Below are positions 1-17,109 of a DNA stretch of 18,204 nucleotides, piece after piece. The stretch covers positions 1-18,204 of the forward strand of contig JBDKRC010000008.1 in assembly GCA_039683575.1 (NCBI GenBank), in the 5' to 3' direction. A program made the translations under genes and the position numbers. The notes under the pieces were generated by a model. It did not search any database. It had not been told where the DNA came from and saw only the letters and a list, made by a program, of their open reading frames with translations. Within the stretch, counting starts at the first letter, position 1, and each line of letters opens with the position of its first letter. The stretch comes from Armatimonadia bacterium (lineage in GTDB: Bacteria > Armatimonadota > Zipacnadia > Zipacnadales > UBA11051).

Positions 1-16
1 GACGCTCACACATTCC

Positions 17-79
17 GGCACACGGGGTGTGCCTCCCACGCGGCTATAATGTGCCTCCCACGCGGACAAAACGTGCCTC
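17..79 (-). repeat. REP-like hairpin plus short 22-nt-period direct repeat
   Basis: The minus strand 39->17 reads GTGGGA-GGCACAC-CCC-GTGTGCC (GTGG tetramer, then a 7-bp palindrome). TGTGCCTCCCACGCGG occurs exactly at 28-43 and 50-65, with a partial third copy GTGCCTC at 73-79. Confidence 0.6.
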
Positions 80-121
80 TGACACGAGCAACACTTTGTC
101 ATGCACAGGCACAACACCCTC

Positions 122-147
122 TGTCATGCTGAGTGCAGCGAAGCATC
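122..147 (+). repeat. Short extragenic element of the TGTCATNCTGAGCGNAGCGAAGNATC type
   Basis: TGTCATGCTGAGTGCAGCGAAGCATC lies just beyond the stop codon of the 160-2988 gene. It resembles, from memory, a widespread small extragenic palindromic repeat. Only one copy is in the window. Confidence 0.45.
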
Positions 148-159
148 CAGTCTCCTCCG

Positions 160-2988
160 CTACTCCACCGGCACAAGTTGCAGCGCATCGAACCACGCGC
201 TGCCCGCGCTGATCAGTCGCAGCGAGGCGCTGAGGCGGGGCTTCGCCGGGTCGGAGGCCACGAACTCGACCGCGTACTCCTTCCACTCCGTCGTCAGCGC
301 GTGGGTGCCCTCTTCGCCCTTCACGGTGTCAATCGCGAACGAGAACTGTTGCCCCTCGCGCTCGCCCCGCGCCCAGATGGATAGCCGGTACTTCTGCTTG
401 GCCGTGAGGCGCACCGGGAAGGGCTGCACGCCGATGCCCTGGCCCTCGACCGGTGTGCGCAGGCGCAGCGACTGCCGCCCGTGTGCTGCCGTGCGCGGGT
501 CCACATACCACGAGGCCGACTTGTCCGCGCCGTAGCCTATGTAGCACCCGTCCGGCGTCCCCACGTTGTGCATCTCTTCCCAACTCGGGTTCACGATCAG
601 GCTCTTGGGGTTGAGTGTTGTCAGGTCGGCAGGCGCGGCCGCCACCTGCAGCCGGTATACCCGCGTGCCGAACGGCTCGATCGTGTCCGTCAGCACACCG
701 TCCGTGACCCTCACCTGCCGGTTCTCGAACACCACCTCGGCGTCACCGGACCACTTGTCCGCCAGCGTCAGCGTCATCTGCTGCGGTTCGTTCTTGGGAT
801 TGGCGCAAAGCACCGTTACCGCCCCGCGTTCATTGAAGGCAGCGACGTGGATGCTGGCCGGGAGCACCGTGGGCGCCGGGCGTTGCTCGCCCGCGAGGGC
901 CGGGGTGAGCTGTCCAAGCTCGAACATCAACCGCCGGCACTCGCTCCACAGGTCAGGGGAGTTCGGGTTGCTTGCCGGGGGGCGGCGGATGAAGTACTGG
1001 ATGCCGCGGCTGTTGTGGATCAGCGCCAAATACGTCATGCACCGCATTTCCTGCCGCGATGGCTCGCGCTTCCACCACTCGCCGCCCCCAAACGCCTGCG
1101 GCACCACCCACAGCGGCAGCGCGTCCGCCAGATCCCGGTTGATGCGGTCGCAAAAATCCGACACGTTCGTCACCGGCGAGTTCGGGATTGGGTATGGATC
1201 GGTCATGCAAATGTCCATCCCCCGCGCATAACGCGCCGCCGCCTCGGACTGGCAGAAAACCATCGTGACTGGGTGCCACGGATCGAGTTCCTTGATCTTG
1301 CGGTACGCGATCTCGCAGTCCTCCGCGCTCGCCGACCCCAGTTCCGGCTCATCGGCCAGATAGTACGCCAGCAGCGCCGGATGGTCGCGGAAGGCCTCGA
1401 TCTCCTCCTTCAGCCACGCCCACTTCTCCTCAGTATGGGGCGGGCGGGCCGCTCCGTGCAGGCATAGCTGCACATACAGCCCCACCTCGGCGCAGCGGTC
1501 GAACATCTTCCGCAGGCTCTCGCGGGTCTTGCGCCTTTCCTCAATACTGGTGGGCAGGTAGGGGGCAATGGTGTTGAACCCGAAGACCGGCTCGTCGCGG
1601 ATGACATCATCCACTGAGCGCAGGTCGGCATAGCAGGACTGCGGGCAAAACGGCAGCCCGCCGACCAGCAGCGTCTGGCTGCGGTTGTCTATCACCACAC
1701 CATTCGCCGTCGGTGTGGCGAGGGTGAGATCGCCGCGCGCCGAGCCGAGCTTCTGGCCTTTGCGGTACAGTTCGGCCGTGAGCGGCGTCTGGCCCACTGG
1801 CAGCCCCTCGGTCTTCAGCGGCAGGACTGTCAGGGCATCTGCCTTCACCGCACCCTCGGCGACCTTGCCGGACGGTCCGGTGATCTGCACCGTCAGGTCC
1901 TCTCCCGCCTCCTCCGCCACTTGCACGAGCACCGTCGCGGCGTCAGTCTGCGTATACGGCACCCGCCCCGGCCTGATCCCCACCAGCCGCGGCACCGTGA
2001 TCGTCAGCGGCGGCGACTGGTACAGCGGCTTCTCGCCGTCGAGCAGCGCCAACTGCACCGGATACGTCCCCGGCCCAGGCAGCGCGAGGCTGAGCTTCAC
2101 CGGCGTCGCCCTATCCGTCAGCGCCAACGCCCGCTCGTCCTTGACCTCAGGCTGCTTCACCAGCGACAGCCGCGCCGTCACCTGCTTCGGCCCCTCGCCC
2201 ACCCGTCGCAGGCTCAGCCCAAAGTCCAGCTTTTCGCCGAGCAGCCGGTCGGTGAACTCAAGCCGCGAGACTTCTACCCCGCCGATCACGTACGGCTGCG
2301 GCTCGTAGGCAAACTCCACCGACCACTTCTGCTCCTCACCCTTCGGCAACGGGGCGTCCCGCCCCAGCCACAGTTGCTTGCGGTGGGCGTAGTCAAAGAG
2401 CGTCAGGCCCGCGGTGGAGTTGAAGGTGAGTTTGCCGAAGAAGCTGGAGAATTCGCCGCTGGTGGCGTCGCCGAAGGGGTTGCTCGCACCGGCGAAGGTG
2501 AAGGGGATCTCGCCGGACTTCTCACCGGCCGGGGTCTTGACCCTGAACTGCGAGCCCACGAACCACGTCGGCGTTGGCATCGCCGCATTGACTTCGTAGT
2601 TCATCGGCTCATCCCAGCCGCGCCCCGTGAAGAAGTACTCGATGCGGAAGCGGTCGCCGGGGCCGGCGGTGATGATCTCTCGCCAGGGGAGCTTCTCGTC
2701 GGCGCACGTGACCGTCAGGACCTGCTGGTTGCCCTGCTTGGCCAGGGCCGTCTTCAGCGTGTCCTGCCGGTTGGCCTGATAGCTCCACGTCCAGCCGTTG
2801 GGATAGGCCACTACAGGGCTGCGCGTGCCCGCAAAAAGAGTGCGCCCGTCACAGGTCACGGAGAGCAGGCTCTCCGGGTCCCAGCGCAGGCGCAGGTGGT
2901 TCAGCGGCAGGTCGTACTCCATCTGCGCCGAGGCTGCCGCCGCCGTCAGAATGAGCGTAGCCAGTACGACCTGCCGTAGAATGTGCAT
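160..2988 (-). CDS. Secreted multidomain glycoside hydrolase-like protein (TIM-barrel domain, C-terminal CBM4/9-like beta-sandwich)
   Basis: 942-aa ORF with a Sec signal peptide (MHILRQVVLATLILTAAAASA-Q). TIM-barrel-type motifs: GFNTI, HPALLAYYLADEPE, DPYP, PLWVVPQAFG, RGIQYF. The C-terminus LIVNPSWEE...AAHGRQSLRL...YRLSIWARG...WFDALQL is typical of CBM_4_9-like domains. The start ATG directly abuts the upstream gene's TAA. Confidence 0.8.
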   Translation of the reverse strand: MHILRQVVLATLILTAAAASAQMEYDLPLNHLRLRWDPESLLSVTCDGRTLFAGTRSPVVAYPNGWTWSYQANRQDTLKTALAKQGNQQVLTVTCADEKLPWREIITAGPGDRFRIEYFFTGRGWDEPMNYEVNAAMPTPTWFVGSQFRVKTPAGEKSGEIPFTFAGASNPFGDATSGEFSSFFGKLTFNSTAGLTLFDYAHRKQLWLGRDAPLPKGEEQKWSVEFAYEPQPYVIGGVEVSRLEFTDRLLGEKLDFGLSLRRVGEGPKQVTARLSLVKQPEVKDERALALTDRATPVKLSLALPGPGTYPVQLALLDGEKPLYQSPPLTITVPRLVGIRPGRVPYTQTDAATVLVQVAEEAGEDLTVQITGPSGKVAEGAVKADALTVLPLKTEGLPVGQTPLTAELYRKGQKLGSARGDLTLATPTANGVVIDNRSQTLLVGGLPFCPQSCYADLRSVDDVIRDEPVFGFNTIAPYLPTSIEERRKTRESLRKMFDRCAEVGLYVQLCLHGAARPPHTEEKWAWLKEEIEAFRDHPALLAYYLADEPELGSASAEDCEIAYRKIKELDPWHPVTMVFCQSEAAARYARGMDICMTDPYPIPNSPVTNVSDFCDRINRDLADALPLWVVPQAFGGGEWWKREPSRQEMRCMTYLALIHNSRGIQYFIRRPPASNPNSPDLWSECRRLMFELGQLTPALAGEQRPAPTVLPASIHVAAFNERGAVTVLCANPKNEPQQMTLTLADKWSGDAEVVFENRQVRVTDGVLTDTIEPFGTRVYRLQVAAAPADLTTLNPKSLIVNPSWEEMHNVGTPDGCYIGYGADKSASWYVDPRTAAHGRQSLRLRTPVEGQGIGVQPFPVRLTAKQKYRLSIWARGEREGQQFSFAIDTVKGEEGTHALTTEWKEYAVEFVASDPAKPRLSASLRLISAGSAWFDALQLVPVE

Positions 2989-5900
2989 TTACTTTACCGT
3001 CCAGGTTCCCTCCGCGGAGGAACTGCTGAAGAGCTCCGTCGCCCGCACGCGCCACTTGCCCGGCTGGTCATTGAAAGCCACCGCAATCTGCGCCTGGCCA
3101 ACGCCCTTCTCGAGCATGACCACTTGCTGGCCCCACAGCGGCACCTGTCCCTGCGGGTCAATGACTTCGACCCACACCGGGTGCTTCTCGGTCGCCCGCG
3201 CGGGGATCGGGAGCTTGAGGTTGGCGGTGATCGTGTCGCCGGCCTTCGGCGCCGCGCTCGACAGCGTCACACTCAGGCCCTTGAGCTGGTACGGCAGCGC
3301 CGCATAGAAGCTGGCGCGGCCCCATCGGAGCTTGCTGTTGACCTCTTTCGTGGTGCCGAGGTACTTGTGGTTGCGCAGGTCGTAGACGTGCATGGCCTTC
3401 GGCAGCGCCATCTTCGCGGCCACTGGCTCACCGGCCAGCGTCCCGCTCTTGGGGCCGAACCACGCGCACTGCATCTGCCGCCACGAGCCAAACACGTACC
3501 CGTCGCCATTGCGCCAGATGCGGCTCTCAACGGCTGGCAGCGGCTCGCCGGCAGGGGACGCGATCTTGATCGGCGCGGCAGCCCCGGCAGCGCCGCAAAG
3601 CGCCGCCATTAGCTCCCGCACCTTCGCGGTCGCCGGATCGTCCGCCTTGGGCGTCTCGATCTGGAAGTTGAGCAGGATGGCCTGGCCCTTGCCGACCTTG
3701 TTGACGAGCCCGACGGGCACGCCCTCTACTGTGCCGAGCGGCTGGGCGGTGGTGGCCTTCACATCGAGGTCCACGCGCACCTGCGGCAACTCGACGTCCA
3801 GCTTCTGCCCGCCCAGCATCCCGCTGAGCTTCACAGCCGTCGTCTTCGCCTTGCCGCGCCCGGGGCGCTCGATGCCGAAGAGTTCGTCCATCGAGGCGGG
3901 GGAAACCGGCTTGCAGTGTCCGTCCAGCATTCCGGTGCGGACGTCCGCGATGACCGTACCGCCTGCTTCGACGAAGCGCCGGATCGTCTGCGCCTGCTCA
4001 GCCGACAGCGCCTGCGTCATGGGCAGGACCAGGGCCTTGAACTCGCTGTTCGTCAGCGCGCCCTCCTTGAGCATCTGGTCGGTCACATAGCGGAAGTCGA
4101 GGCCGCATTCGTAGATAAGCTGCGTCCATACCTCGTGCGTCGGCTGCGGCTGGATGAACTCGCGGCTGTTCTCGATCTGCCCCGACAGGGCCGATGGCAG
4201 GGAGTACAGAACCGCAATCCCGCTGTGCTGTACCGGCGTCTGCAGCAGCAGGTCGCCGAGGCCCTCGCGCACCGGCTTCATCTCATCGGTCACGTCCTGG
4301 ATAAACGGCCAGAAGTCGATCGTGGGGCGGATATACCCGCGCCAGCTTCCGAACCCGTCCCACATCCAGTACCACACGCTGTCCATGTTCTTCATGACCA
4401 TCCGCCACGCCGCGTCCGATATTGCATCGCCGGTCTTCGAATACCCCATCCAGTTCGAGCGCACCTGATCCCGGCTCGCCCGCGAGCGGACGATATCGTC
4501 GCCGATGCTCGGGTACGGGCCGTAGAAGGGGTTCGTGCCCAGGATGGCGTCATAGTCGTCCCCGAAGTTGCCTGTACCCTCAAAGCCCGTCTTGGCCAGC
4601 GGGTCGAGTTGCTTGTAAGCGTCCACGAACCGCCCGGAGAAGTGCATCAGGTTGTAGCGTGCAAACGCCTCGCGGTCATACCACCGCGCCGGCGCGGTCT
4701 TCAGCGCCTGCTTCTCCATGTTATCCTTCGGGTCGAGGAGGTTCACATCCTCAAACGAGGCATACTTCTCGCCCCACGAGGCGTTCAGTTTGTCGATCGT
4801 CCCATACTGTCCCTGCAGCCACTTGCGGTACGCCGCGATGCAGTCCGGGTGGACGCAGCAGCCCTTGGTGACGCCCTCGTCACCCAGCGAGTACACGAAC
4901 ACGCCCTGCTCCCGCTGGAACTTCTGGTTGTCCACGATCTTGTTCACATACTCACTCACCACCGGCTCGTGGTTCCAGCACATCGGCTTCATGTAGCCGT
5001 TCTCGTCCTTGTCGTCCAGAATCCGGGTGCTGTAGGGCACAATCGAGGCATCGCAGGCCGCGAGGACCGCCGCCTGCTTGCGCGGCTGGCCGCCCATCGT
5101 GCCGAGCAGGCAGACATTGTACCCCGCCGTCTGGAGTTGCCGCCACGCGTAGTAGCCCAGCGGGTCCAGCCCGGCGTCCCACATTACGAAGTTCATCTGC
5201 CCGTGGCGACGCTTGGGGACGGTGAAGGAGGTGTCCTTCATCTCGACCTCGCGCTTGTCGGCGATCAGCGAGGCTTCCACGCGCATGAGAATGGTCGAGA
5301 AGGGATCGGACTTGTAGGAGAAGGTGTAGTCGGCGGCATTGCCGACGGGGATATTCTGGGTCTTGAGCACGCGGTCATACGAGTCGCGGAAGCGGATCTG
5401 CAGCACGCTGCCCGCCGGCGGCGTCCCGCGCAGCACCGCGCGGCCGTTGATCGTCTCGCCGCGCTCGATGAAGCTACGGTCCATCTGCACGTTGTCCACG
5501 CCGAAGTCGCTTACCACGTTGATCGTGCCTGCCGCCGCGGTCTCAGTGCCCTTGGCGCTCTTCACGACCACGTCAGCATAGTAGGTCCCAGCCCGCAGCA
5601 CCGGCACGGCCACCGGCACCTGCACCGGCTGGCCTGCCGTCAGCGTCTGCTTGCTGGTCATGCCCACGACTTCCTTGCTGCCATCGGCCGCCCGCCGCAG
5701 GTTGGTTGTGACAGTGACCGGCAGCGGCTGGGCCGCCGTCGTAGTCAGCGTCAACTGCCCCGCAGTGGGATTCTCAACCCGCCCGACTTCGAGCGGCTTG
5801 TCATCGAAGACCGTCACGGCCACTGCCGGCTCTTTCGCCGCCGCCCACTGCGCCGCGCGGCCCAGTAGCAACTGCCAGTAGTCGTATTCGACCAGTCGGG

Positions 5901-6576
5901 GGAAGCTGAACTCCTGGCGTGGCCCGAGCGCGGGGCTGTCATACTTCAGCCATACGCCGCGGCCCTTGCCGAGCTTGTAGGTGTTGATGAAGTCCGAGAG
6001 CTTCTTCTCGAGCGTCGGGAGGCCGTTGGTCAGCGAGGCGGGGGCCTGTAGTTTCCGGCCGGGCGTCATGAACTCGCTGCCCGCGGTTCCCACACACAGG
6101 AGCCCGGCGCCCTTGGCTACCTGTTCGAGGATCTGGTACTGCATCTTGGCGGGGAGCTTGTCGAGGGGGAAGCCGCCAATGACGTAGAGGTCATAGGGCT
6201 TCTCCAGCAGCTTCTCAGCGCGCTCAGCGCCGGTCTTCAGGCCGTGGAAGTTCCACGCGCCACTGCCGCCGCCGCTGGCGTACAGGACTGCATCGCCCTT
6301 GATGTCGAAGCGCTGCCCGAGTTCCACTACCTCTCGCATGCGCATCCCCGGCTCGCTCCACTGGCCGCCATAGGAGCCCGCATAGATGAAAAACAGCGCC
6401 CGGATCGGTCCGCCAGTATAGCCTGTGCCCCAGTCAGTGTGCGGCGTCACAATCGCCGTCTGCAGCGAATGGTCTTCCTCCACCTCCTGCGCGTCCTCAG
6501 CAGCGGCGGCATAGGCGGTCGTGGCAACCATGGCCACCAGCACGGCGAGCAGCAGCGGGACATATACACTCTTCAT
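2989..6576 (-). CDS. Secreted GH42-like (beta-galactosidase-like) protein with trimerisation-type domain
   Basis: Long ORF. The best start is ATG at 6576 (MKSVYVPLLLAVLVAMVATTAYA, signal peptide), preceded by a GGGGAGG Shine-Dalgarno at about 6584-6590. GH42-like segment CCVHPDCIAAYRKWLQGQYGTIDKLNASWG. Trimerisation-like segment LDFRYV...FKALVLP...IRRFVEAGGTVIAD...NKVGKGQAILLNF. The C-terminal beta-sandwich ends NDQPGKWRVRATE. Confidence 0.8.
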   Translation of the reverse strand: MKSVYVPLLLAVLVAMVATTAYAAAAEDAQEVEEDHSLQTAIVTPHTDWGTGYTGGPIRALFFIYAGSYGGQWSEPGMRMREVVELGQRFDIKGDAVLYASGGGSGAWNFHGLKTGAERAEKLLEKPYDLYVIGGFPLDKLPAKMQYQILEQVAKGAGLLCVGTAGSEFMTPGRKLQAPASLTNGLPTLEKKLSDFINTYKLGKGRGVWLKYDSPALGPRQEFSFPRLVEYDYWQLLLGRAAQWAAAKEPAVAVTVFDDKPLEVGRVENPTAGQLTLTTTAAQPLPVTVTTNLRRAADGSKEVVGMTSKQTLTAGQPVQVPVAVPVLRAGTYYADVVVKSAKGTETAAAGTINVVSDFGVDNVQMDRSFIERGETINGRAVLRGTPPAGSVLQIRFRDSYDRVLKTQNIPVGNAADYTFSYKSDPFSTILMRVEASLIADKREVEMKDTSFTVPKRRHGQMNFVMWDAGLDPLGYYAWRQLQTAGYNVCLLGTMGGQPRKQAAVLAACDASIVPYSTRILDDKDENGYMKPMCWNHEPVVSEYVNKIVDNQKFQREQGVFVYSLGDEGVTKGCCVHPDCIAAYRKWLQGQYGTIDKLNASWGEKYASFEDVNLLDPKDNMEKQALKTAPARWYDREAFARYNLMHFSGRFVDAYKQLDPLAKTGFEGTGNFGDDYDAILGTNPFYGPYPSIGDDIVRSRASRDQVRSNWMGYSKTGDAISDAAWRMVMKNMDSVWYWMWDGFGSWRGYIRPTIDFWPFIQDVTDEMKPVREGLGDLLLQTPVQHSGIAVLYSLPSALSGQIENSREFIQPQPTHEVWTQLIYECGLDFRYVTDQMLKEGALTNSEFKALVLPMTQALSAEQAQTIRRFVEAGGTVIADVRTGMLDGHCKPVSPASMDELFGIERPGRGKAKTTAVKLSGMLGGQKLDVELPQVRVDLDVKATTAQPLGTVEGVPVGLVNKVGKGQAILLNFQIETPKADDPATAKVRELMAALCGAAGAAAPIKIASPAGEPLPAVESRIWRNGDGYVFGSWRQMQCAWFGPKSGTLAGEPVAAKMALPKAMHVYDLRNHKYLGTTKEVNSKLRWGRASFYAALPYQLKGLSVTLSSAAPKAGDTITANLKLPIPARATEKHPVWVEVIDPQGQVPLWGQQVVMLEKGVGQAQIAVAFNDQPGKWRVRATELFSSSSAEGTWTVK

Positions 6577-6640
6577 GGCAAAACCTCCCCGAATTCTGCA
6601 GATGTTGGGGCCCCTTCGCATTTGCACCTGCATTCTCCTC

Positions 6641-6668
6641 TTGGCAGCGGCGAGAATGATTGTACAAT
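6641..6668 (+). promoter_or_regulatory. Putative sigma70 promoter for the DUF362 gene, overlapping a 10-bp palindrome
   Basis: TTGGCA (6641-6646), 16 nt, TACAAT (6663-6668) in the divergent intergenic region. ATTGTACAAT (6659-6668) is a perfect palindrome. Confidence 0.4.
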
Positions 6669-6731
6669 ATGCATAGTGCCGCTATTGTTCAGAGGTGGGC
6701 GCAGTTCCTTCCGCCCACGGAAGTGGAGACC

Positions 6732-7703
6732 ATGGATCGTCGTGACTTCCTGAAAAGCCTCGCCCTCGCCGGCCTCGGTACAACCCTCCTCGCCGGCTGC
6801 CGTTCAGGCGGGTCCGGTGGCGGTTCGGCTGCCGCGCAAGCCGGCGGCAAAGTCGGCAACAACCGCCTGGTGCCGGCCCCCGTCAACGGCGTTCATATCG
6901 CCGTGGCCCGCAACAAGGCCCCCGCCGAACTCGTTGCCGCGGCCCTCGCGGCCTTTGGCGGCATGTCGGCCTTCGTAAAGCCGGGCGACCGCGTGGTCAT
7001 CAAGCCCAACATCGCCTGGAGCCGTACCCCCGAGCAGGCCGCCTGCACCAGCCCCGAAGTCCTCACCGCGGTCATCAAAGCCTGCCAGGAAGCGCAGGCG
7101 GCGGAAGTCCTCGTCGCCGACCACACCTGCGACACCAGTTCCATCACCTTCGACCTCTCCGGCCTCGCCGCCGCCTGCAAAGACGCCGACGTGCCGCTGG
7201 TGGACTGGGGCAATGAGCAGCAGTACCGCGAGGTTGAGCTGGCTCGCGGCCAGAACCTGAAGACCGACCGCGTGCCGCTGGACCTCCTGGACTGCGACGC
7301 CTACATCAACCTGCCCACCCTTAAGCACCACGCGGCTACCACGATCACGCTCGCGCTCAAGAACCAGATGGGCTGCGTTTGGGATCGCGGCCGGTATCAT
7401 TCCACCCAGGGCGCCGCCGGGGGCAACAACCTCCACCGCAACATCGCCGACCTCGCCACTGCTTTGCGCCCGACGTTGAACATTCTTGATGCCACTCGCG
7501 CCCTCAAGACTAACGGGCCCAAAGGTCCGGGCCTCGTTGAGGAGCTCAATACCGTCTGCATCAGCCCGGACATCGTCGCGCTGGATGCCTATGGTGCGAG
7601 GCTTCTAGGGCACGATCCGGCTTCCATTCCGCATATCAAAATGGCCGCCGCCGACCAGATCGGGGAAATGCAGCCCGACGCCTCCTTGATTAGGGTGGTA
7701 TGA
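6732..7703 (+). CDS. DUF362 domain protein with Tat/lipoprotein signal
   Basis: Start at ATG 6732 after GGAG. Twin-arginine motif MDRRDFLK and lipobox LLAG-C. DUF362-type motifs: FVKPGDRVVIKPN, TSPEV, YINLPTLKHH, TLALKNQMG, RPTLNILDA, GPKGPG, DIVALDAYG. Confidence 0.88.
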   Translation: MDRRDFLKSLALAGLGTTLLAGCRSGGSGGGSAAAQAGGKVGNNRLVPAPVNGVHIAVARNKAPAELVAAALAAFGGMSAFVKPGDRVVIKPNIAWSRTPEQAACTSPEVLTAVIKACQEAQAAEVLVADHTCDTSSITFDLSGLAAACKDADVPLVDWGNEQQYREVELARGQNLKTDRVPLDLLDCDAYINLPTLKHHAATTITLALKNQMGCVWDRGRYHSTQGAAGGNNLHRNIADLATALRPTLNILDATRALKTNGPKGPGLVEELNTVCISPDIVALDAYGARLLGHDPASIPHIKMAAADQIGEMQPDASLIRVV

Positions 7704-7776
7704 GCCTCGATACAATAAGGAAATACGTTGCGGCTGTCGAATACTTAGCCAACAGCACGCAGGAAAGTGGATCGCC

Positions 7777-8181
7777 ATGACCGCTTCCGACCACCTTGAC
7801 CCACGAGTAGTGGAGTTCGTGGAGACCGTGGCCCAGACCATCGTCGGTCTGGATGTAGCGCTGTTCTTCCAGAATAACCCCCGTACGTTCGATACCCCCG
7901 CCGGTCTCGCCCTGCGCACCCATCGCGGCGTCAAGGAAGTCGCCGAGGTCCTTGAGCGCATGGCTGCCCATGGCATACTCGAAGCCTTCACCCGCGCCGA
8001 AGGCCGCTACACCTGCTATGCGTTGCCCAGGGATCCCAAGATCTGGAACCTGTTGTGCCTGCTCAGCGAAGCGTACCTCGACGACCTCAACAGCCGTAAA
8101 GAGATCATCAGAATCATTATCCGCCGTCAGGCTCAGCATACCGAGGCTGAAGGCACTGATTCCGGGGGAGAGAAGGTCTAA
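7777..8181 (+). CDS. Small winged helix-turn-helix-like protein, partner of the KaiC-family ATPase
   Basis: 134-aa ORF. LFFQNNPRTFDTPAGLALRTHRGVKEVAEVLERMAAHGILE...RYTCYAL fits a three-helix plus wing pattern. It ends 3 nt before the ATPase start. Confidence 0.7.
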   Translation: MTASDHLDPRVVEFVETVAQTIVGLDVALFFQNNPRTFDTPAGLALRTHRGVKEVAEVLERMAAHGILEAFTRAEGRYTCYALPRDPKIWNLLCLLSEAYLDDLNSRKEIIRIIIRRQAQHTEAEGTDSGGEKV

Positions 8182-8184
8182 CCA

Positions 8185-10824
8185 ATGGCCGAGCTGCTAC
8201 GGAGTGGAATACCGGGGCTGGATTGCCTGCTCGGTGGGGGAATCCGCCCGGGAGCCTGCCTGCTGCTAGAGGGCGTTCCCGGTGTCGGCAAAACCACCTT
8301 CGGCATGCAATTCGCCGCCTTCGGTGCCTCCACCAATGAACCCGCCATCATCGTCACTTTCGAGCAATTCCCCGAACAGATCTACAACGATGCCCTGAAC
8401 CTCGGCTGGGACTTGCGCTCGCTCGAGGACAAGGACCGCCTGCGCGTCGTCTGCACCTCACCCGACGTCTTTCTCGACCAGCTCAGCGACGTCGGCGGGA
8501 TGATGGATAGCCTCATCGCCGAGATCGGCGCGCGGCGGCTGATGGTGGACAGCGTGGCCCATCTGGCTCACATCGCCAGCGGCCCCGGCGAGTTGCGTCC
8601 GCTCGTCTACGGCATGCTCAATGGCATTCGCCGCGCCGGCCTCACCGCCATGATCACCAAGGAAGTCGAGTCGGCCTCCCCTGAGAACATTCCCTTCGAG
8701 GAATACCTCGTGGACACGGTCATCCGGCTGTCCTTCGAACTCCAGCACAGCCTCTACCGCCACCGCAACGTCGAGATCATCAAGTCCCGAGGTCAACATC
8801 ACTCCCACGGTCGCCACACCCTGGTCATTGACGGCTGCGGGGCCACGATCTACCCGCGCTACGAACCCAAGCGCCGCGAAATCAGCACCGAAGCCTGTGC
8901 CTCCAGCCGCGTCAGTACCGGCATCAGCGGCCTCGATGCCATGCTCGAAGGTGGGATAGGATCGGGCCATGCGACGCTTCTCGCCGGCAGCGCCGGTGTC
9001 GGCAAAACGACTTTCGCCCTGCAGTTCCTGGCCGCTGGCGCTCAGCGGGGCGAGCCGGGCATCCTTGTGACCTTCGAGGAGAAGCCCGACAAGCTCTGCG
9101 AGCTTGCTGCCGGCTTCGGCATAGATATCCGCAGCCTCCAGGAGCAGAAACTCCTCAGCATCCTCCACCGCTCTCCGCTGCACCTCTCGAGCGATCAACT
9201 GCTTTGCGAACTGCAGGAGGAAGTGAAGCAGCTTGGCGCCCGCCTCGTCGCCATCGACAGCCTTACTGACCTGACGATGAGCACCTACGAGCCCCGCCAG
9301 TTCCGCGAGACCGTCTTCATGATCAGCGACATGCTGCAGGAGGCGGGCGTGACCTCGTTGCTCACCGTGGAGGTCCCCGAACTCTTCGGCCAGACCTACG
9401 TCACTTCCGAGCACGTCTCGATCATCGTGGACGGCATCATCCTCATGAAGTACGTCGAGATGGAGAGCGAAATCCAGCGCGCCATCTCCGTGCTCAAAAT
9501 GCGCGGCTGCAACCATGACAAGGGCATCCATCGCTACACCATAGACAACAACGGCATCAACATCCGCGCCCGCTTTGAGGGTACCTCGGGCGTCATGGGC
9601 GGCAGCCCCATCCAGACGCCCGTCACCCTCTCGGTCCGTAGCTTCACCGAGTACGACGAAGCACTCAACAACGAACTGATGGAGCGCTTCTCGCAGCTCT
9701 ACCCGCACGTCAAACCGGTTTCCCTGACGATTCCCTACAACCCGGATGATGTGCGGGAGACGGTGCGGGGCGCCCTGGAGGCGAGTTCCACCAGTCTGAG
9801 CGTCGCTCCGCTATGTCTGTACTGGTTGCCGGAGGTCATTGAGCTCGGCAGGCTGCTCCCGCTCGACAACGTCATTCCTCCCCGCGAGACCAAGCTGCAT
9901 CTGCCGGACCTGCTGGACGCGGGCAAGGCGAACGGGCGTCTCTGGGCAGCCCCCGCCATGGCTCTGTGCGGCGTGATGCTCTACCGCAAGGACCTGCTGG
10001 AAGAGTACGGCTTCACTCACCCGCCCCGCACCTGGGACGAGCTGATCGAGCAGGCGCAGACCATTCTCAAGGGCGAGAAGGACCCCAACCTCATCGGCTG
10101 CCAGTTCCCAGCGTATCACTACGAGGGCCTCACAACCTCGTTCCTGCAGAATCTGTGGAGCAATGGCGGCGAGCTTCTGGTGGACGGCCAGCCGGCCCTG
10201 CAGACCGAGAACTCCTTGCAGGCCCTGAAGTACATGCGCAGCATGATCTTCGACCACGAGCTAAGCCCCCGGAACCTCACGAGCGCCGCGCACGGCCTCG
10301 AGCCTCAGTCTGACTTCATCGCCGGTCGCACGATCTTCCTGATCATGTTGCCGAGTGTCGCGCAGGCCTGCCAGAGCGAGGGCTCGCACATGCGTGGCAA
10401 GGTAGGGATTGCCCCGCATCCGATGGGACCTTTGGGCACCGAATCAATCACCTTCCTCGGTGGCTGGCACTACGGCATCCCGACAGGAGCGCGTTCCCCC
10501 GAGGCGGCAGGCAACTTCATCCGCTTCATGACCAGCTACGAGGTCCAGAGGGAACGCTCGCTGCGGGGTGGTCCGATGCCGACCATACCCAGTCTGTACT
10601 CGGATCCGGAGATCATCGCTTTCAACCCGGATTACCCGCTCCTCCAGCGCCTGCTCAAGACTGCGCGCAAGCGCCACGAGATTCCGCACTACAGCGAGAT
10701 CTCGCGGCTGATCCAGGCGCACCTCCACCCGGTCCTGACCGGCGACACGGAGCCCGAAGCGGCTCTCGCGCAACTCAGCGAAGAGATCAGCATCGTCCTC
10801 ACCGAGAAGCGCCCAGCGAACTAA
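8185..10824 (+). CDS. KaiC-family double RecA-type ATPase fused to a C-terminal sugar solute-binding (trehalose/maltose-type) domain
   Basis: 879 aa. Domain 1: SGIPGLD, Walker A GVPGVGKT (8272-8295), TFEQ, MVDS, EEYLVDTVI, KSRG. Domain 2: STGISGLD, Walker A GSAGVGKT (8986-9009), TFEE, AIDS, HVSIIVDGII, KMRG. From about residue 479 there is a family-1 SBP pattern: LYRKDLLEEYG..PPRTWDEL, YEGL, WSNGG, GKVGIAPHP, LGGWHYGI, FIRFMTS. No signal peptide or transmembrane helix is evident. Confidence 0.9.
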   Translation: MAELLRSGIPGLDCLLGGGIRPGACLLLEGVPGVGKTTFGMQFAAFGASTNEPAIIVTFEQFPEQIYNDALNLGWDLRSLEDKDRLRVVCTSPDVFLDQLSDVGGMMDSLIAEIGARRLMVDSVAHLAHIASGPGELRPLVYGMLNGIRRAGLTAMITKEVESASPENIPFEEYLVDTVIRLSFELQHSLYRHRNVEIIKSRGQHHSHGRHTLVIDGCGATIYPRYEPKRREISTEACASSRVSTGISGLDAMLEGGIGSGHATLLAGSAGVGKTTFALQFLAAGAQRGEPGILVTFEEKPDKLCELAAGFGIDIRSLQEQKLLSILHRSPLHLSSDQLLCELQEEVKQLGARLVAIDSLTDLTMSTYEPRQFRETVFMISDMLQEAGVTSLLTVEVPELFGQTYVTSEHVSIIVDGIILMKYVEMESEIQRAISVLKMRGCNHDKGIHRYTIDNNGINIRARFEGTSGVMGGSPIQTPVTLSVRSFTEYDEALNNELMERFSQLYPHVKPVSLTIPYNPDDVRETVRGALEASSTSLSVAPLCLYWLPEVIELGRLLPLDNVIPPRETKLHLPDLLDAGKANGRLWAAPAMALCGVMLYRKDLLEEYGFTHPPRTWDELIEQAQTILKGEKDPNLIGCQFPAYHYEGLTTSFLQNLWSNGGELLVDGQPALQTENSLQALKYMRSMIFDHELSPRNLTSAAHGLEPQSDFIAGRTIFLIMLPSVAQACQSEGSHMRGKVGIAPHPMGPLGTESITFLGGWHYGIPTGARSPEAAGNFIRFMTSYEVQRERSLRGGPMPTIPSLYSDPEIIAFNPDYPLLQRLLKTARKRHEIPHYSEISRLIQAHLHPVLTGDTEPEAALAQLSEEISIVLTEKRPAN

Positions 10825-10940
10825 CGGCCAGGCCCCGCCCGCCCTGCTGTCGCTGCTCGGAAGGGCCGAATGCCGACAGCTTCACCGTCGGCCTCCGGTT
10901 CGTGGCAATCCACCATACTAGTAACCGCAGACCGTCGTCA

Positions 10941-11021
10941 GGGCCGAAGGCCCGTCAGCCTCTAGCCGGGGGCGCAAGCCCCCGGTCGCAACGCCGCTCA
11001 CAACCAGAGCCCCGAAGGGGC
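10941..11021 (+). repeat. Three-hairpin REP/MITE-like extragenic element (copy A)
   Basis: GGGCC-GAA-GGCCC (10941-10953); TAG followed by CCGGGGGC-GCAA-GCCCCCGG (10966-10985); GCCCC-GAA-GGGGC (11009-11021). Same layout as 16151-16235 on the minus strand. Confidence 0.65.
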
Positions 11022-11130
11022 GGCAGCGCCGTTATCAACGACCCACACCGCCCGCCGTCTTCTCCGCCTGGCAGGAATACCCCCCACCAAAGACGAAGAC
11101 GCTCCCCAACACGCTGCACGGGAGACCCCA

Positions 11131-13455
11131 ATGCCACGCCATACCCTCCTCCTGCTCCTCACCCTCATCACCTTCGTCCCGCTATGCCATGCCGCCGACC
11201 AGCCGGTGAAGGCTGCCTTCATGTACTCTGGTTGGCCCAATGGGACGGCGTCCTTCAAGGACGAATTCGACCGCACCTTCGCCACCCTCGGCTGGCAGGT
11301 CACCAAGTTCGAGAACACCCAGGCCAAAGACCTCAGTGACCGCCTCAGCGAGTTCAACGTTGTTGTCGGCAGCAGTGTCAGCAACTACGCCAACCCGCAG
11401 GACTTCAAGCCCTTCGCCGACAAATGGCAGGCCTTTCTCGAAAACGGCGGCATCGTCCTGGCCACCGACGCCTCCTACGCTCCGATCAACGTCCAGTGGA
11501 TCGGTGGGATCAACCCTGCCTTCAGCACCTCCCCCGCGATCTGCAGCGCCCACTCCAAGCCTAGCGCCCAAACCGCGATCTCCAAATTCGCCGACGCGCC
11601 GCTGCTGACCGTCCCCGGCGACCTCCGCCCCGCCCTGCGCGCCAAGACCAACTGGTCCCACCTCGGGACCCTCGGCTCCGGCTGGACCACCGCCGTCACC
11701 TGCTATGATGACAAGCCGGTGCTGGTCTACCGCCCGGTGGGTAAGGGCCTGCTGATCGTGACCAACTACTTCGGCCTGAGAGGCGATAGCGAGATTGCCC
11801 GCGGCCTGCTCCAAAACGCCCTCACGATGACTCGCCTGCGCGCCCGCGGCCTGGAGTTGACTGCCCTCGAAGCGCAGGAGGGGCGTCTGACCGGCAACCA
11901 GCTCACGGTCCGCCTGAAGAACGTTCAGGACCAGCCCGCCAGCGTCTCGGCTCGGCTGGCGCTCAATCTCGGCGACAAGAAGCTCGAGACGTCCGCCGCT
12001 GCGACCGTCCAGCCCGGCGCTGAGGCTGTGCTGCCCCTTAAGTATGATCTACCCGCCCGCGGCCAGTGGGCCGGCACCCTCGATCTGCTTCAGGGGGACC
12101 AACTCGCCCTGTCGAGTAAGCACGAGATCATCGTTCCTGAACTGATTGCGATCCGGCTTCCCTCGCGCCACCAGTATGTCCATCGTCCTCTGCTCCGTGT
12201 GGGCGTTACCCTCGCCCCCGAACTGGGCGAGCGCCTCGCTGGCCTCACCGTGCGCCTGAGCCTCGGCAAGGGCTCACCGCTCATTGTGAAGCCGACGGAA
12301 CTCGACTCGCAGGCGCAACTCTCGCTCGACAAGCTTCCGCCGGGCGACTACACCCTGACCGCGACGCTGCTCGAAAACCAGAAGCAAGTTGCCAGCGCCG
12401 GGGCGCCCTTCATCATCCACCCGCGGCCACCCATCACCTATGACCCGAACAACATCACGTACGTGAACGGCAAGCCCTTCTTCCCGCTGGGCATGTACCA
12501 GGTCGGCTGGAGCCGCACGAAGGAGCAGAAGATCGCTGCGTTGCAGGAAATGGCCGCCGCGGGGTTCAACTGCGCGCACATGAGCTGCACGAGCCTCGAC
12601 GACTTCCAGCCCGTGCTCGACGAGGCCCAGCGCCTCGGCATGATGCTCCTGATCGAGGGCCTCGGGGCCAACTACGCCACCGTCCACCGCTTCAAGAACC
12701 ATCCGGCCGTACTCGGCTGGAATTCCGGTGACGAGCCCGACTGCAGCAACACCCCGCCGGAGGAGGTCGGACGCACCGTTGAGGCCCTCCGCGACGCCGA
12801 CTGGTCCCGCCTCATCTACACCACCGTCGCCAGCCCGGACGCCCTCGCCCGCTATGCGCCCTATGCCGACGTTTTCACCAATGACCCCTATCCCGTCACC
12901 GCCAAAAACACCAACACCATCGCCGTAGCCCGCCAGACCGCGCGCGCTCGCGAATCTGTGGCCGGGGCCAAGCCGCTTTGGATGGTGCCCCAGTGCTTCG
13001 GCTATGCCGATGGTCACTGGGCGGTGCCCACACCCGCGCAGGAACGCAGCATGACCTACCAGACGGTCATCGAGGGCGCTCGCGGTCTGGTTTGGTATAC
13101 CTTCGACGACAAAAGCTTCATGGTCCTCGACCACCCTGAGCTATGGGCGATGATGAAGCAGCTTGTGACCGAACTGAAGGCCCTCACGCCCGTGCTGCTG
13201 CAGCCGGAGGGCAAGGTCAAGCGCTTCACGGCCGGTCCCGAGGACGTGATCCGCGCGGCCGCCATCGGCGACACCATAATGGCCGCCCACACCAACGACA
13301 AAGACCTCGGCCCCCAGGAGTTGACCATCCCCGGCCTCAAGGGCAAAGCCCAGGCCGAGGTGCTGTTTGAGGACCGGACAGTGAGCCTGACCGACGGCAA
13401 GCTGACGGACAATTTCGCGCCATATGCGGTGCATGTATACAGGGTGAAGCAGTAA
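11131..13455 (+). CDS. Secreted multidomain glycoside hydrolase-like protein (C-terminal TIM barrel paralogous to the 160-2988 protein)
   Basis: 774 aa with GGAG upstream and a signal peptide (MPRHTLLLLLTLITFVPLCHA-A). N-terminal class I glutamine amidotransferase-like segment (FLENGGIVLATD...GKGLLIVT). Barrel motifs: VNGKPFFPLGMY, AGFNCAH, HPAVLGWNSGDEPD, DPYP, PLWMVPQCFG, GARGLVWY. The tail AEVLFEDRTVSLTDGKLTDNFAPYAVHVYR resembles AEVVFENRQVRVTDGVLTDTIEPFGTRVYR in the 160-2988 protein. Confidence 0.8.
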   Translation: MPRHTLLLLLTLITFVPLCHAADQPVKAAFMYSGWPNGTASFKDEFDRTFATLGWQVTKFENTQAKDLSDRLSEFNVVVGSSVSNYANPQDFKPFADKWQAFLENGGIVLATDASYAPINVQWIGGINPAFSTSPAICSAHSKPSAQTAISKFADAPLLTVPGDLRPALRAKTNWSHLGTLGSGWTTAVTCYDDKPVLVYRPVGKGLLIVTNYFGLRGDSEIARGLLQNALTMTRLRARGLELTALEAQEGRLTGNQLTVRLKNVQDQPASVSARLALNLGDKKLETSAAATVQPGAEAVLPLKYDLPARGQWAGTLDLLQGDQLALSSKHEIIVPELIAIRLPSRHQYVHRPLLRVGVTLAPELGERLAGLTVRLSLGKGSPLIVKPTELDSQAQLSLDKLPPGDYTLTATLLENQKQVASAGAPFIIHPRPPITYDPNNITYVNGKPFFPLGMYQVGWSRTKEQKIAALQEMAAAGFNCAHMSCTSLDDFQPVLDEAQRLGMMLLIEGLGANYATVHRFKNHPAVLGWNSGDEPDCSNTPPEEVGRTVEALRDADWSRLIYTTVASPDALARYAPYADVFTNDPYPVTAKNTNTIAVARQTARARESVAGAKPLWMVPQCFGYADGHWAVPTPAQERSMTYQTVIEGARGLVWYTFDDKSFMVLDHPELWAMMKQLVTELKALTPVLLQPEGKVKRFTAGPEDVIRAAAIGDTIMAAHTNDKDLGPQELTIPGLKGKAQAEVLFEDRTVSLTDGKLTDNFAPYAVHVYRVKQ

Positions 13456-13457
13456 CC

Positions 13458-14564
13458 ATGGATTTCACTCAGATCAAGTACCAGGACGCAGCAACGAAGA
13501 CCTACATCGGCAGCCCCAGCCTCCTGCGGCTGGACAATGGCGACCTGCTGGCCACCCATGACTACTTCGGCCCCGGCTGCCCCCGCAACCTCGAGAACGA
13601 AGAGCACTTGACGTCCGTGTACCGCTCCAGCGACGATGGCGCGACATGGGTGAACGTCACCCATGTCGCCGGGCAGTATTGGAGCAACCTCTTCGCTCAC
13701 GGCGGCGCTGTGTGGCTCCTGGGGTGCTCCCAGCAGTTTGGCTCCATCGTCATCCGCCGCAGCGACGACGGCGGCAACACGTGGACCCATGCGCGGGACG
13801 AGCAGAGCGGATGGCTGTTCCGTGGCGGCTACTACCACGAGAATCCGAACTACCACTGCGCTCCGATGCCGGTCTTGAAAAAGGACGGCTGGCTCTACCG
13901 TGCCTTCGAGGACTGCCGCGACGCCCGCTGGGGAACGGGCTTCCAATCGCTGGTAATAGCCGCGCCGGAAGACGCCGACCTGCTTGAAGCCAGGAACTGG
14001 ATCATGAGCAACAAGCTGCCCTTCGACACGGCCTGGCTGCCGTCAGATTGGCCGCAGCTAATGGCCCCCGGCTACCTCGAAGGAAACGTCGTAGAGACCG
14101 CTGAGGGCGGCCTGGTGAACATTCTGCGGTGCAACTCCACCCCCGTAGTGGACAAGGCGGTCATACTGCGGATTACTCACGAGGGGGAGACACTGAAGCA
14201 GGAGTTCGACAGCCTCATCGACTTCCCGGGTGGGATGACGAAATTCACAATCCGCCGCCATCCTCAAACAGGAAAGTACCTCACGCTGGCGAATGGGAAC
14301 ACGGACCCGCAATACCCCAGCCAGCGCAATATACTGTCGTTGTACGAGTCAGATAATCTGCGAGAATGGCGGCATGTGAAGACCCTGATCGAGGACGATT
14401 CGCCGCTGCCGTGGGAGGAAGCGGTGAGGCTGGTCGGGTTCCAGTACGTGGACTGGCAGTTCGATGGCGAGGGCATAGTCTACGCGGTGCGGGTGGCTTA
14501 CGACGGGGCCCACAACTTCCATGATGCCAACCGGCTGACGTTTCACCGCATTGATCGTCTTTAG
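13458..14564 (+). CDS. BNR/Asp-box repeat beta-propeller protein (sialidase family-like), cytoplasmic
   Basis: 368 aa starting 2 nt after the upstream stop. Asp-box repeats SSDDGATW, RSDDGGNTW and degenerate ESDNLREW. YIGSPSL sits where sialidases have the FRIP-type motif, and FQYVDW lies near the C-terminus. No signal peptide. Confidence 0.8.
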   Translation: MDFTQIKYQDAATKTYIGSPSLLRLDNGDLLATHDYFGPGCPRNLENEEHLTSVYRSSDDGATWVNVTHVAGQYWSNLFAHGGAVWLLGCSQQFGSIVIRRSDDGGNTWTHARDEQSGWLFRGGYYHENPNYHCAPMPVLKKDGWLYRAFEDCRDARWGTGFQSLVIAAPEDADLLEARNWIMSNKLPFDTAWLPSDWPQLMAPGYLEGNVVETAEGGLVNILRCNSTPVVDKAVILRITHEGETLKQEFDSLIDFPGGMTKFTIRRHPQTGKYLTLANGNTDPQYPSQRNILSLYESDNLREWRHVKTLIEDDSPLPWEEAVRLVGFQYVDWQFDGEGIVYAVRVAYDGAHNFHDANRLTFHRIDRL

Positions 14565-16257: not shown

Positions 16258-17109
16258 ATGGCGGCAATGATCGGTTTCAGTAATGCAAGCCTCGCCCGGC
16301 ACTCGCTTGGCGAGGCTTGTTTGGTTGGGCATGAGCTTGGGTTTCGGGCGGTTGAGTTCCTGGCCTTCGATGGCTTTCGGCATAGCGCGGGGCCGCTGGC
16401 GGGGTTCTATTTTGAGCGGATGACGGAGGCGGAGAGGGAGGAGTTGCGGGAACTGGCGCAGGGGTTTGAGCGGGTTTCGCTGCATGCGCAGTTCTATGAG
16501 GTGCCGATTCTATCGCCCTCGCCCGCACTGCGGGAGGTGGCCTGGGAGCAGTTGGTGGTGTCTCTGCAGGCAGCGGCTAACCTGGGGGCGAGCACGGTCA
16601 CGACCCATGCGGCGCTTAAGGCTTCCTATTCGCTGGAGGAGAGTTGGGATGAGCTGGTGGCGCATTACCGGCGATTAGGGGACGTGGCGGCTGATCTGGG
16701 CGTGACGGTGACCATCGAGACGATCTTCCCGCCGACGATTGAGGATTTCGCGCGGCTCGTGCATGAGGTGGATCACCCGGCGGTGGGGGCCAATGTGGAT
16801 GTGGGGCATCTGCGGCACCTGGTGCCGGTGGAGGTGCGTGAGGCGGGGACGGTGGCGGAGTTCTATAACGATCTGCTGGAGCGGCACATACGGTCGCTGG
16901 GGGAGAAAGTGTGGCATTTTCATCTGCACGATGTGCGCGAGGAAGGGCTGCGCGACCACCGGGCGTGTGGGCGGGGGATCATTGACTATGGGCGGGTGAA
17001 GCGGGTGGCGGCGGAGGTGGGGTTTGACGGCGCGATGGTGTTTGAGCTTGAGGAGCCAGACGTGGTGGAGGCGTTGCGGGAGAGTTTTGAGGTGGTGCAG
17101 AGGGCGTAG
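16258..17109 (+). CDS. Sugar phosphate isomerase/epimerase (xylose isomerase-like / AP endonuclease 2 TIM barrel)
   Basis: 283 aa with GGAG upstream. Metal-binding pattern VTIET, NVDVGH, HFHLHDV, RDH, GRGIIDY, VFELEE. N-terminal ELGFRAVE. Confidence 0.88.
   Translation: MAAMIGFSNASLARHSLGEACLVGHELGFRAVEFLAFDGFRHSAGPLAGFYFERMTEAEREELRELAQGFERVSLHAQFYEVPILSPSPALREVAWEQLVVSLQAAANLGASTVTTHAALKASYSLEESWDELVAHYRRLGDVAADLGVTVTIETIFPPTIEDFARLVHEVDHPAVGANVDVGHLRHLVPVEVREAGTVAEFYNDLLERHIRSLGEKVWHFHLHDVREEGLRDHRACGRGIIDYGRVKRVAAEVGFDGAMVFELEEPDVVEALRESFEVVQRA

Follow-up and report, generated by a model that had tools for sequence, protein, structure and literature searches.

KaiC of the cyanobacteria S. 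elongatus and T. elongatus is composed of two RecA-like domains, CI and CII. Its A-loop is a switch for the kinase activity of the protein, and residues 488-497 are taken here to be the segment that Kim et al. 2008 gave this name. KaiB, a small protein that binds KaiC, is encoded upstream of kaiC, and its domain recurs at the N-terminus of the histidine kinase SasA. The subject here is P0001, a KaiC-type protein encoded in the window, i.e., the whole 18,204-nt stretch of an Armatimonadota bacterium contig that was analyzed. P0001 is made up of KaiC CI, KaiC CII, and a MalE/trehalose-type solute-binding protein domain (SBP). It shares the double RecA-like CI-CII architecture of cyanobacterial KaiC at about 30-33% identity and a structural alignment Z-score of about 40. 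Also shared are the Walker A motifs, the CII Glu pair, equivalents of S431 and T426, and an A-loop equivalent at residues 469-478. P0001 differs in having a 400-aa SBP for the KaiA-binding tail, a hydrophobic residue at the T432 site, and a CI catalytic pair that is E-Q, not E-E. Moreover, KaiA and KaiB of the cyanobacterial system were not found in the window's genome. The chances are about even that P0001 is a KaiC-type signalling ATPase of the cytoplasm that senses carbohydrates and works with a winged-helix-like partner, P0269.

Venus-flytrap or SBP sensors of BvgS-type kinases and class C receptors are composed of a periplasmic-binding-protein fold wired to an effector. These sensors are extracytoplasmic and N-terminal to the effector, whereas the SBP of P0001 is cytoplasmic, C-terminal, and joined by its own N-terminal strand to the KaiC ring. 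In 2017, Makarova, Galperin and Koonin reportedly assigned KaiC-like ATPases a role as signalling hubs that carry fused domains, KaiC-REC (receiver) being an example. Their work on these hubs is cited in the accessible part of PMC5847659. P0001 resembles the hub ATPases in that a KaiC-family ATPase is combined with input or output domains. The KaiC of Rhodobacter sphaeroides is, like P0001, KaiA-less and possesses a C-terminal addition just past the A-loop as a proposed regulatory part (PMC10076222, accessible part). In that protein the added part, a helix of ~50 residues, links a pair of hexamers, in contrast to the globular ligand-binding-type domain of P0001. According to the same part of that source, the extended loop, not the coiled coil, explains the KaiA-independent fast autophosphorylation, and KaiB is present with this KaiC, unlike in the window's genome. 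No description of a KaiC-SBP fusion or of a P0269-like partner was found in the full-text literature searched, which holds few subscription journals; Makarova et al. 2017 may list them.

The open reading frame (ORF) at 8185-10824 (+) has a stop-free translation of 879 aa. The gene, its domains, and the phosphosite equivalents are as follows:

8185..10824, + strand: KaiC-SBP fusion gene encoding P0001, 879 aa plus stop (ORF, Pfam, phmmer, AlphaFold model)
8200..8859, + strand: KaiC CI domain (PF06745), with Walker A GVPGVGKTT and catalytic pair E60-Q61 rather than E-E
8911..9567, + strand: KaiC CII domain (PF06745, E 2.3e-56, stretch 243-461), with Walker A GSAGVGKTT and catalytic E298-E299
9418..9423, + strand: S412-I413, at the phosphosites S431-T432 of KaiC (phmmer alignment)
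9619..10821, + strand: SBP (Venus-flytrap) domain of the MalE / trehalose-maltose type, residues 479-879 (Pfam SBP_bac_1 and SBP_bac_8, fold)

In Pfam, PF06745 (KaiC) is matched twice in P0001, with an E-value of 3.9e-101 and 337.7 bits against a gathering score of 26.6. By this score, P0001 is a member of the KaiC-like ATPase superfamily. SBP_bac_1 (PF01547) is matched at residues 487-788 with 83.6 bits against a cut-off of 26. E-values to S. elongatus KaiC in the Protein Data Bank (PDB) range from about 1e-63 to 1e-71 with phmmer, and residues 1-478 have a KaiC fold with Z about 40 to 1tf7 and 2gbl. The E-values and Z-scores for the KaiC and SBP assignments exclude chance. The NCBIfam KaiC equivalogs stay below cut-off, NF006799 with 320 bits vs 408 and TIGR02655 with 232.5 vs 546.25. 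The window's genome is 96.4% complete and has one double-domain KaiC, which is P0001. On the + strand, a promoter and terminator scan of 7500-11400 gave no more than is expected from shuffled sequence. A chimeric assembly, or two genes joined by a sequencing error, could also produce such an ORF. The probability of this artefact is negligible, as the same unbroken ORF occurs in 77 other full-length sequences of several sources, 22 loci of metagenome-assembled genomes (MAGs), and 9 further sampled genomes.

The junction of the two parts lies at the end of CII, which reads ...KMRGCNHDKGIHRYTIDNNGINIRARFEGTSGVMGGSPIQT and then PVTLSVRSF. Its elements are:

9571..9603, + strand: motif RFEGxxG(V/L)(M/L)xG, residues 463-473, the CII end and first half of the A-loop equivalent
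9589..9618, + strand: GVMGGSPIQT, residues 469-478, equivalent to KaiC A-loop residues 488-497 (sequence and structural alignment; pLDDT, the predicted local distance difference test score, 56-61)
9604..9621, + strand: connector, residues 474-479, six residues of constant length and variable sequence (entropy 1.91, no indel in 78/78 family sequences)

In phmmer searches of the PDB, P0001 5-480 aligns with S. elongatus KaiC 1u9i 21-499 (E 8e-64). Residues 460-480 (irarfegtsgvmggspiqtpv) align ungapped with Thermosynechococcus KaiC 7dy1 479-499 (irdsfrnfegiisgtptrisv). The AlphaFold2 monomer model of P0001 was built on 78 sequences and has a mean pLDDT of 88.8 and a predicted template modelling score (pTM) of 0.63. 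Structural alignment places model residues 1..478 on 17..497 of S. elongatus KaiC 1tf7_A (Z 39.7, root-mean-square deviation (rmsd) 3.8, 465 aligned). Residues 477..876 are placed on 3..405 of the Thermus alpha-glycoside-binding protein 6j9w_A (Z 49.9, rmsd 1.9, 391 aligned), and the match to 1eu8_A is similar (Z 50.3, rmsd 2.0, 396 aligned). In the model, SBP strand beta1 is formed by residues 478-482, and the SBP fold begins at residue 477-479. Because 1..478 matches KaiC and 477..876 matches SBPs, the KaiC fold ends at the onset of the SBP fold. In place of the KaiA-binding tail (498-519), all of which is missing, the SBP follows with no linker, and GVMGGSPIQT corresponds in position and structure to KaiC 488-497.

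A sequence-only reading of this DNA had placed GVMGGSPIQT at residues 469-478 (nt 9589-9618), within a span of 9565-9660 that corresponds to residues 461-492; strings and coordinates are correct. It had also described a graft of the SBP with almost no linker, which agrees with an SBP fold from 477-479 and a KaiC fold to 478. Its assignment of GVMGGSPIQT as the A-loop equivalent is borne out by the ungapped phmmer alignment and by the structural match of 478 to 497. The aligned ranges agree with the S. elongatus CII-end string that it gave.

In detail, S468 of P0001 pairs with E487 of KaiC, G469 with R488, and I476 with T495. S412 pairs with S431, I413 with T432, and T407 with T426. The pLDDT of the monomer model at the junction is 61 for residues 461-470 and 56 for 471-480, and is below 50 at 400-404, the equivalent of the KaiC 422-loop.

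The fused family was collected with a word-indexed search. KaiC and SBP domains are found together in 81 of the 120 matches listed, and the named sources of the fused matches are Armatimonadota MAGs. NCBI labels fused relatives "extracellular solute-binding protein", and JGI labels them "circadian clock protein KaiC"; the NCBI label is misleading because the domain is cytoplasmic. The family alignment is made up of 78 sequences: P0001 and 77 full-length matches that are 46-94% identical to it, with the partial P0021, P0065, P0081, and P0082 excluded. P0274, considered as a free-standing close SBP, was rejected, as it starts inside the KaiC end motif on a 1.9-kb contig and is a fragment of a fused gene. 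Sampling of 201 genomes from the phylum yielded the full-length fusion in 10, all within the window's order.

Block 440-500 is gap-free in 78/78 family members, and the indel-free region spans positions 367-566; the CI-CII linker (231-240) does show indels. Residues R463, F464, E465, G466, G469, and G473 are invariant. Column entropy is 0.47 for residues 463-473 and 0.70 for 480-491, compared with a whole-protein mean of 1.38. Variability within the junction peaks at residues 474-479 (1.91). Judged from the alignment, a connector that is constant in length and free in sequence joins two conserved elements. The sites of E487 and T495 are occupied by E468 and R476 in 52/78 members. R476 occurs in 52/52 sequences with E468 and in 6/26 without it. 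This covariation suggests a structured loop, with relatedness as a confounder, as the tree has about two joint losses. P0001 belongs to a subclade in which both residues are lost, and G469 takes the place of R488 family-wide.

The KaiC core of P0001 has the two tandem RecA-like domains with Walker A motifs of circadian KaiC. The catalytic Glu pairs of circadian KaiC are E77 and E78 in CI and E318 and E319 in CII. In the family, CI position 61 is Q in 59/78 and E in 19/78, with E60 invariant; CII position 298 is E in 71/78, with E299 invariant. S412 is invariant in 78/78, and position 413 is I (66), V (11), or M (1), never S or T. On this evidence, the adjacent phosphosites S431 and T432 of circadian KaiC are represented by S412 as the only conserved phosphosite. 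No part of the protein is better conserved than the regulatory loops of CII: 422-441 and 397-416 are among its top-ranking 20-residue windows, as is the CII Walker A region. The equivalents of the KaiC 422-loop and of 438-444 are equal in length to those of KaiC and well conserved. P0001 lacks the A-loop with burying residues plus KaiA-binding tail that is found in circadian KaiC. KaiB (PF07689) and KaiA (PF07688) gave no match at E-values up to 0.1 in the window's genome, at the completeness of 96.4%.

These data bear on the proposal that the SBP is a built-in, ligand-dependent KaiA substitute. Here, flytrap closure would pull a buried A-loop equivalent from the CII channel and switch the autokinase on. 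Sequence and fold alike identify the junction as the A-loop equivalent, the KaiA-binding tail is replaced, and KaiA is not found in the genome. A constant connector length suits mechanical coupling. The equivalents of the 422-loop and 438-444, which in S. elongatus pack on the buried loop, are conserved in length, and E468 and R476 covary in the family. The residues that bury the loop tell against the proposal. In S. elongatus, hydrogen bonds of the A-loop residues E487, R488, and T495 keep the loop buried (PMC8538168, accessible part). The same source reports, in that part, that E487A or T495A singly results in constitutive, KaiA-independent phosphorylation. In P0001, these burying residues are replaced by S468, G469, and I476. 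For KaiCs that lack KaiA, the accessible parts of PMC5520375 and PMC10076222 interpret changes in the A-loop as permanent exposure, with phosphorylation that does not depend on KaiA. Moreover, the T432 equivalent is missing in 78/78, the junction varies most at 474-479, and the monomer pLDDT for 461-480 is 56-61. The fold implies that the SBP is joined via strand beta1 of its N-lobe, so closure alone would leave the attachment point still, and coupling would require additional contacts. In the geometry of KaiC, six domains of ~45 kDa at the pore would probably hold the loops extended regardless of ligand. An SBP-less relative that stops exactly after the loop, described below, also argues against this role. 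Overall, the KaiA-substitute mechanism is plausible but rather unlikely.

Distant relatives whose match crosses the junction in one piece were found with an exhaustive search of 50%-identity representatives. By Pfam, P0163 and P0209 are composed of two KaiC domains, an SBP, and an AraC helix-turn-helix. P0181 and P0231 have one KaiC domain, SBP, and AraC helix-turn-helix, and P0167 has one KaiC domain and SBP. Between the FEG motif and SBP strand beta1, P0163, P0209, P0167, and P0181 have exactly the spacing of the family at 25-29% identity, and P0231 has 10 extra residues there. BLASTP of P0001 against P0167 gives 29% identity and is ungapped over the junction. The distant KaiC-SBP(-AraC) forms are without S412 and without the CII Glu pair. 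The AraC DNA-binding end in 4/5 distant relatives points to a KaiC-SBP module that feeds transcription control. P0163, P0209, P0181, and P0231 resemble one-component regulators whose KaiC module has degenerated. Other C-terminal KaiC fusions are the KaiC-cupin P0091, labelled as coming from Armatimonadota, and KaiC-REC P0150 and P0168. In P0150, REC strand beta1 starts about 8 residues past the A-loop equivalent; in P0168, the REC domain follows a long linker.

Such fusions raise the alternative that the fusion site is a topological accident. KaiC would then be a constitutive or ATP/ADP-sensing hexameric scaffold with a loop that is always extended. The SBP would act independently, e.g., by governing partner or DNA-binding output as in SBP-AraC, with no A-loop signalling. 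All C-terminal fusions attach at this point, KaiC-REC P0150 and P0168 and KaiC-cupin P0091 included. An autokinase is absent from distant KaiC-SBP-AraC proteins, which lack S412 and the CII Glu pair, and residues 474-479 vary freely. A simple replacement of the signal peptide would also yield a linker-free join. In the nearest free SBPs (P0276, P0277), strand beta1 directly follows a hydrophobic, signal-peptide-like N-terminus (by eye); therefore, the connector residues derive from the KaiC side. The accident is harder to reconcile with a junction length that is strictly kept in all 78 sequences and in relatives of 25-29% identity, against a CI-CII linker that does vary. RFEGxxGxMxG and SBP strand beta1 are both highly conserved, E468 and R476 covary, and the CII catalytic residues and S412 are kept in the family. 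An accidental junction is thus possible and on the unlikely side. Sequence, fold, and conservation support the claimed position of the SBP at the site of KaiA action on KaiC. The tail is replaced and the junction is fixed in 78/78, and the location is partly forced by C-terminal topology.

The SBP itself has the two-lobe periplasmic-binding-protein fold (PF01547; Z 50.3 to 1eu8, 49.9 to 6j9w). With phmmer, it matches MalE3 6dtq (E 9.7e-55) and 1eu8 (E 2.8e-52). Among solved structures, it is closest to proteins that bind maltose, trehalose, or alpha-glycosides and to one that binds sulfoquinovosyl-glycerol. The model has an rmsd of about 2 to closed liganded forms vs 4.2-5.0 to open forms. No export signal or lipoprotein anchor is present; the SBP is internal behind a cytoplasmic ATPase, without a signal peptide. 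No ABC permease was found among the 12 window ORFs scanned with Pfam. Pocket sites were mapped from wild-type and mutant entries of the Thermus protein, where sugar contact is read from entry titles only. Thermus W287 corresponds to W761 and R356 to R830, both invariant in the family. Thermus D118 corresponds to L594, and the family has L in 41, V in 28, T in 4, and A in 4 of 78, with no Asp among these. MalE3, TMBP, and the nearest free SBPs also have Asp at the D118 site. In addition to the mapped sites, the aromatics Y546, W547, W617, Y646, and W658 are invariant. Taken from these alignments, the pocket looks kept yet changed.

An SBP without small-ligand binding could instead be a structural cap, an oligomerization surface, or a docking surface. 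The Asp of related sugar SBPs is L or V here, and SBP identity is at least 50% inside the fused family and at most 35% to the nearest free transport SBPs. Loss of binding is nevertheless very improbable in view of the invariant W761, R830, and aromatics, and of the complete two-lobe fold with Z about 50 to liganded SBPs. In addition, the SBP part is conserved like the KaiC part (mean entropy 1.36 vs 1.40).

A natural SBP-less relative is encoded in genome G113, which is of the same order as the window and a different family. Its KaiC (L033:5005-6435, -) is 54% identical to P0001 and ends ...RFEGTEGVMIGQGHRAR, exactly at the SBP start position. A P0269 orthologue with 60% identity lies upstream (L033:6447-6866), and a convergent pentapeptide-repeat gene lies downstream. 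No SBP remnant was found at this locus. In a quick IQ-TREE maximum likelihood tree of the KaiC part, supported by Shimodaira-Hasegawa-like approximate likelihood ratio test (SH-aLRT) values only, this KaiC groups with the fused P0070, P0071, and P0067 (96, 100), inside the fused clade (98). This placement points to a secondary loss of the SBP. The Walker, Glu, and Ser motifs of the SBP-less KaiC are intact; hence, the core of KaiC and partner can persist without an SBP. The relative fits a role of the SBP as an accessory input module.

The candidate partner is encoded directly upstream of the fusion gene:

7777..8181, + strand: partner gene P0269, 134 aa, predicted winged helix and long C-terminal helix, with its stop 3 nt ahead of the KaiC-SBP start

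The locus set consists of the window and 22 Armatimonadota loci from named MAGs (n=23; L027 and L028 excluded as fragments). A P0269-like gene of ~130 aa is immediately upstream on the same strand, abutting or overlapping the KaiC-SBP start, in 23/23 loci. AlphaFold predicts a winged helix and a long C-terminal helix for P0269 (pLDDT 92.7, pTM 0.83). Foldseek finds ArsR/MarR-type winged-helix proteins (best 4yif_C, E 9.8e-4, TM about 0.5). Structural alignment gives Z 8-9 to winged-helix proteins overall, e.g., 1r1u_A with Z 9.0, rmsd 4.0, and 91 aligned. These fold matches agree with one another and are of middling strength. P0269 matches no Pfam or NCBIfam family at cut-off; MarR_2 is seen below cut-off in 7/23 members, with a best E of 0.051. 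ESM Atlas clusters carry "hypothetical protein" names only. Lectins, suggested by a profile search against PDB sequences, were rejected as chance-like relatives with no aligned stretch.

Complex prediction of P0269 with KaiC-SBP gave an interaction prediction score from aligned errors (ipSAE) of 0.42 (runs 0.42, 0.44, and 0.39), and the best of three controls reached 0.00. Among the runs, at least 97% of contacts agree, and the partner has a pLDDT of 82. In calibration, the mark was reached by 116/157 solved complexes and 2/215 mismatches. Just 18/157 solved complexes, plus both passing mismatches, scored 0.60 or under; these counts are approximate here, as the alignments were custom-made. The prediction gives weak support for binding of P0269 to KaiC-SBP.

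Beyond the fusion, a P0269-like match is present in 50/201 sampled genomes of the phylum, and a KaiC-family match in 112/201. The KaiC-family match occurs in 49/50 genomes with a P0269-like match vs 63/151 without, with relatedness not accounted for. In other families, P0269-like genes lie directly upstream of a stand-alone KaiC (G051, G038, G094 (twice), G092, G024, and G008). Weaker P0269-like matches upstream of KaiC are found in G187, G071, G032, G142, G178, G148, and G124. Two orphan P0269-like genes have no adjoining KaiC, L036 (G027) and L037 (G080); tblastn found no KaiC remnant beside either (best E 0.23-0.57). The family of G113 seems to be losing the module piecemeal.

The P0269-like domain also heads histidine kinases, with the order domain-PAS-HisKA-HATPase_c in the four scanned with Pfam. 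The window's own genome has one such kinase, P0271, of 373 aa (L040:2821-3942, contig 150), which matches P0269 with a BLASTP E-value of 5e-9. It is followed by a receiver-only response regulator (L040:4093-4590). A double-domain KaiC is found in 5/5 checked genomes that carry P0269-domain kinases. Among 10 sampled fusion-bearing genomes, the kinase form is in one, the window's own.

In gene arrangement, P0269 is comparable to KaiB and SasA. A small gene precedes kaiC and is translationally close to it (23/23), and the same domain heads kinases. KaiB and the N-terminal domain of SasA have a thioredoxin-like fold, in contrast to the predicted winged helix of P0269, and the genome has no PF07689 match. 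The likeness would be limited to gene order and domain use. By this analogy, a nutrient-triggered KaiC timer or switch may have been assembled from non-homologous parts that mirror the clock. P0269 would stand for KaiB, P0269-domain kinases for SasA, and the SBP for KaiA. KaiC phosphorylation would be gated by a metabolite, not a protein, and the SBP-as-KaiA part would exist in one order only. Such a timer is rather unlikely.

The neighbourhood of the fusion gene is rich in genes for glycan use. In 15/22 other loci, a homologous ORF of ~850-1060 aa lies upstream on the opposite strand, mostly about 100-650 bp off. All three of these ORFs that were scanned (3/3) are GH2 (glycoside hydrolase family 2) glycosidases by Pfam. 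The window itself is rich in glycosidase-like ORFs (Pfam). Two very large ORFs abut at 160-2988 (-) and 2989-6633 (-), with 942 and 1214 aa. The 1214-aa ORF has GH42 beta-galactosidase domains (PF02449, 39.7 bits vs 21; PF08532, 35.9 vs 25.8). The 942-aa ORF has sub-cut-off matches only, to GH42 and a carbohydrate-binding module. By these matches, both ORFs probably encode glycan-degrading enzymes. A DUF362 protein with a sub-cut-off twin-arginine signal match (PF10518, 18.7 bits vs 22.7) is encoded at 6660-7703 (+), in the place of the divergent GH2 gene of most related loci.

Downstream of the fusion, 11131-13455 (+) encodes a 774-aa protein with weak GH2/GH42 barrel matches, and 13458-14564 (+) a weakly BNR-repeat-like protein. 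A DegT-type aminotransferase is at 14789-16000 (+), and a xylose-isomerase-like TIM barrel is at 16258-17109 (+). Together, these genes form a sugar-modification and degradation neighbourhood. Small N-terminal methylation (prepilin-type) / DUF1559 proteins are encoded about 3.5 kb upstream in 10/23 loci (L011:3831-4490 (-) and relatives).

In the reading as a carbohydrate-sensing signalling ATPase, we infer that P0001 forms a hexamer, binds a ligand, and is phosphorylated, and we likewise infer in which direction and with which sign coupling runs and what the output is. P0001 is probably hexameric, with the carbohydrate-type SBP as input domain. Six SBPs would crown the CII ring through six-residue connectors to the A-loop-equivalent segments. 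Ligand occupancy would be relayed through the short, rigid junction and probably also through contacts of the SBP with CII or with other SBPs. With occupancy, nucleotide turnover in CII would change, as would autophosphorylation of S412. The signal may exit via the co-transcribed winged-helix-like P0269 and perhaps also via a histidine kinase with the same domain, and the targets would be glycan-utilization genes.

Several points weigh against this reading. The junction has a pLDDT of 56-61 at a pTM of 0.63, and the placement of the SBP relative to CII has no confident prediction. The E468-R476 pair is missing in P0001 itself, which has S468 and I476. The support that complex prediction lends to the partner is weak. 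The Asp of sugar SBPs is replaced by L594, so binding may be altered. The relative in G113 has dispensed with the SBP, and the GH2 gene beside the operon is absent from the window.

P0001 looks like an undescribed cytoplasmic nutrient sensor. Its partner domain is also present on kinases, which suggests a whole unrecognized output route. A KaiC that is ligand-controllable could be used to probe loop conformation against the balance of kinase and phosphatase. For the family, P0001 would be a natural case of KaiC-type ATPases wired as general signalling hubs outside clocks. For this uncultured lineage, it is a candidate regulator of glycan use.

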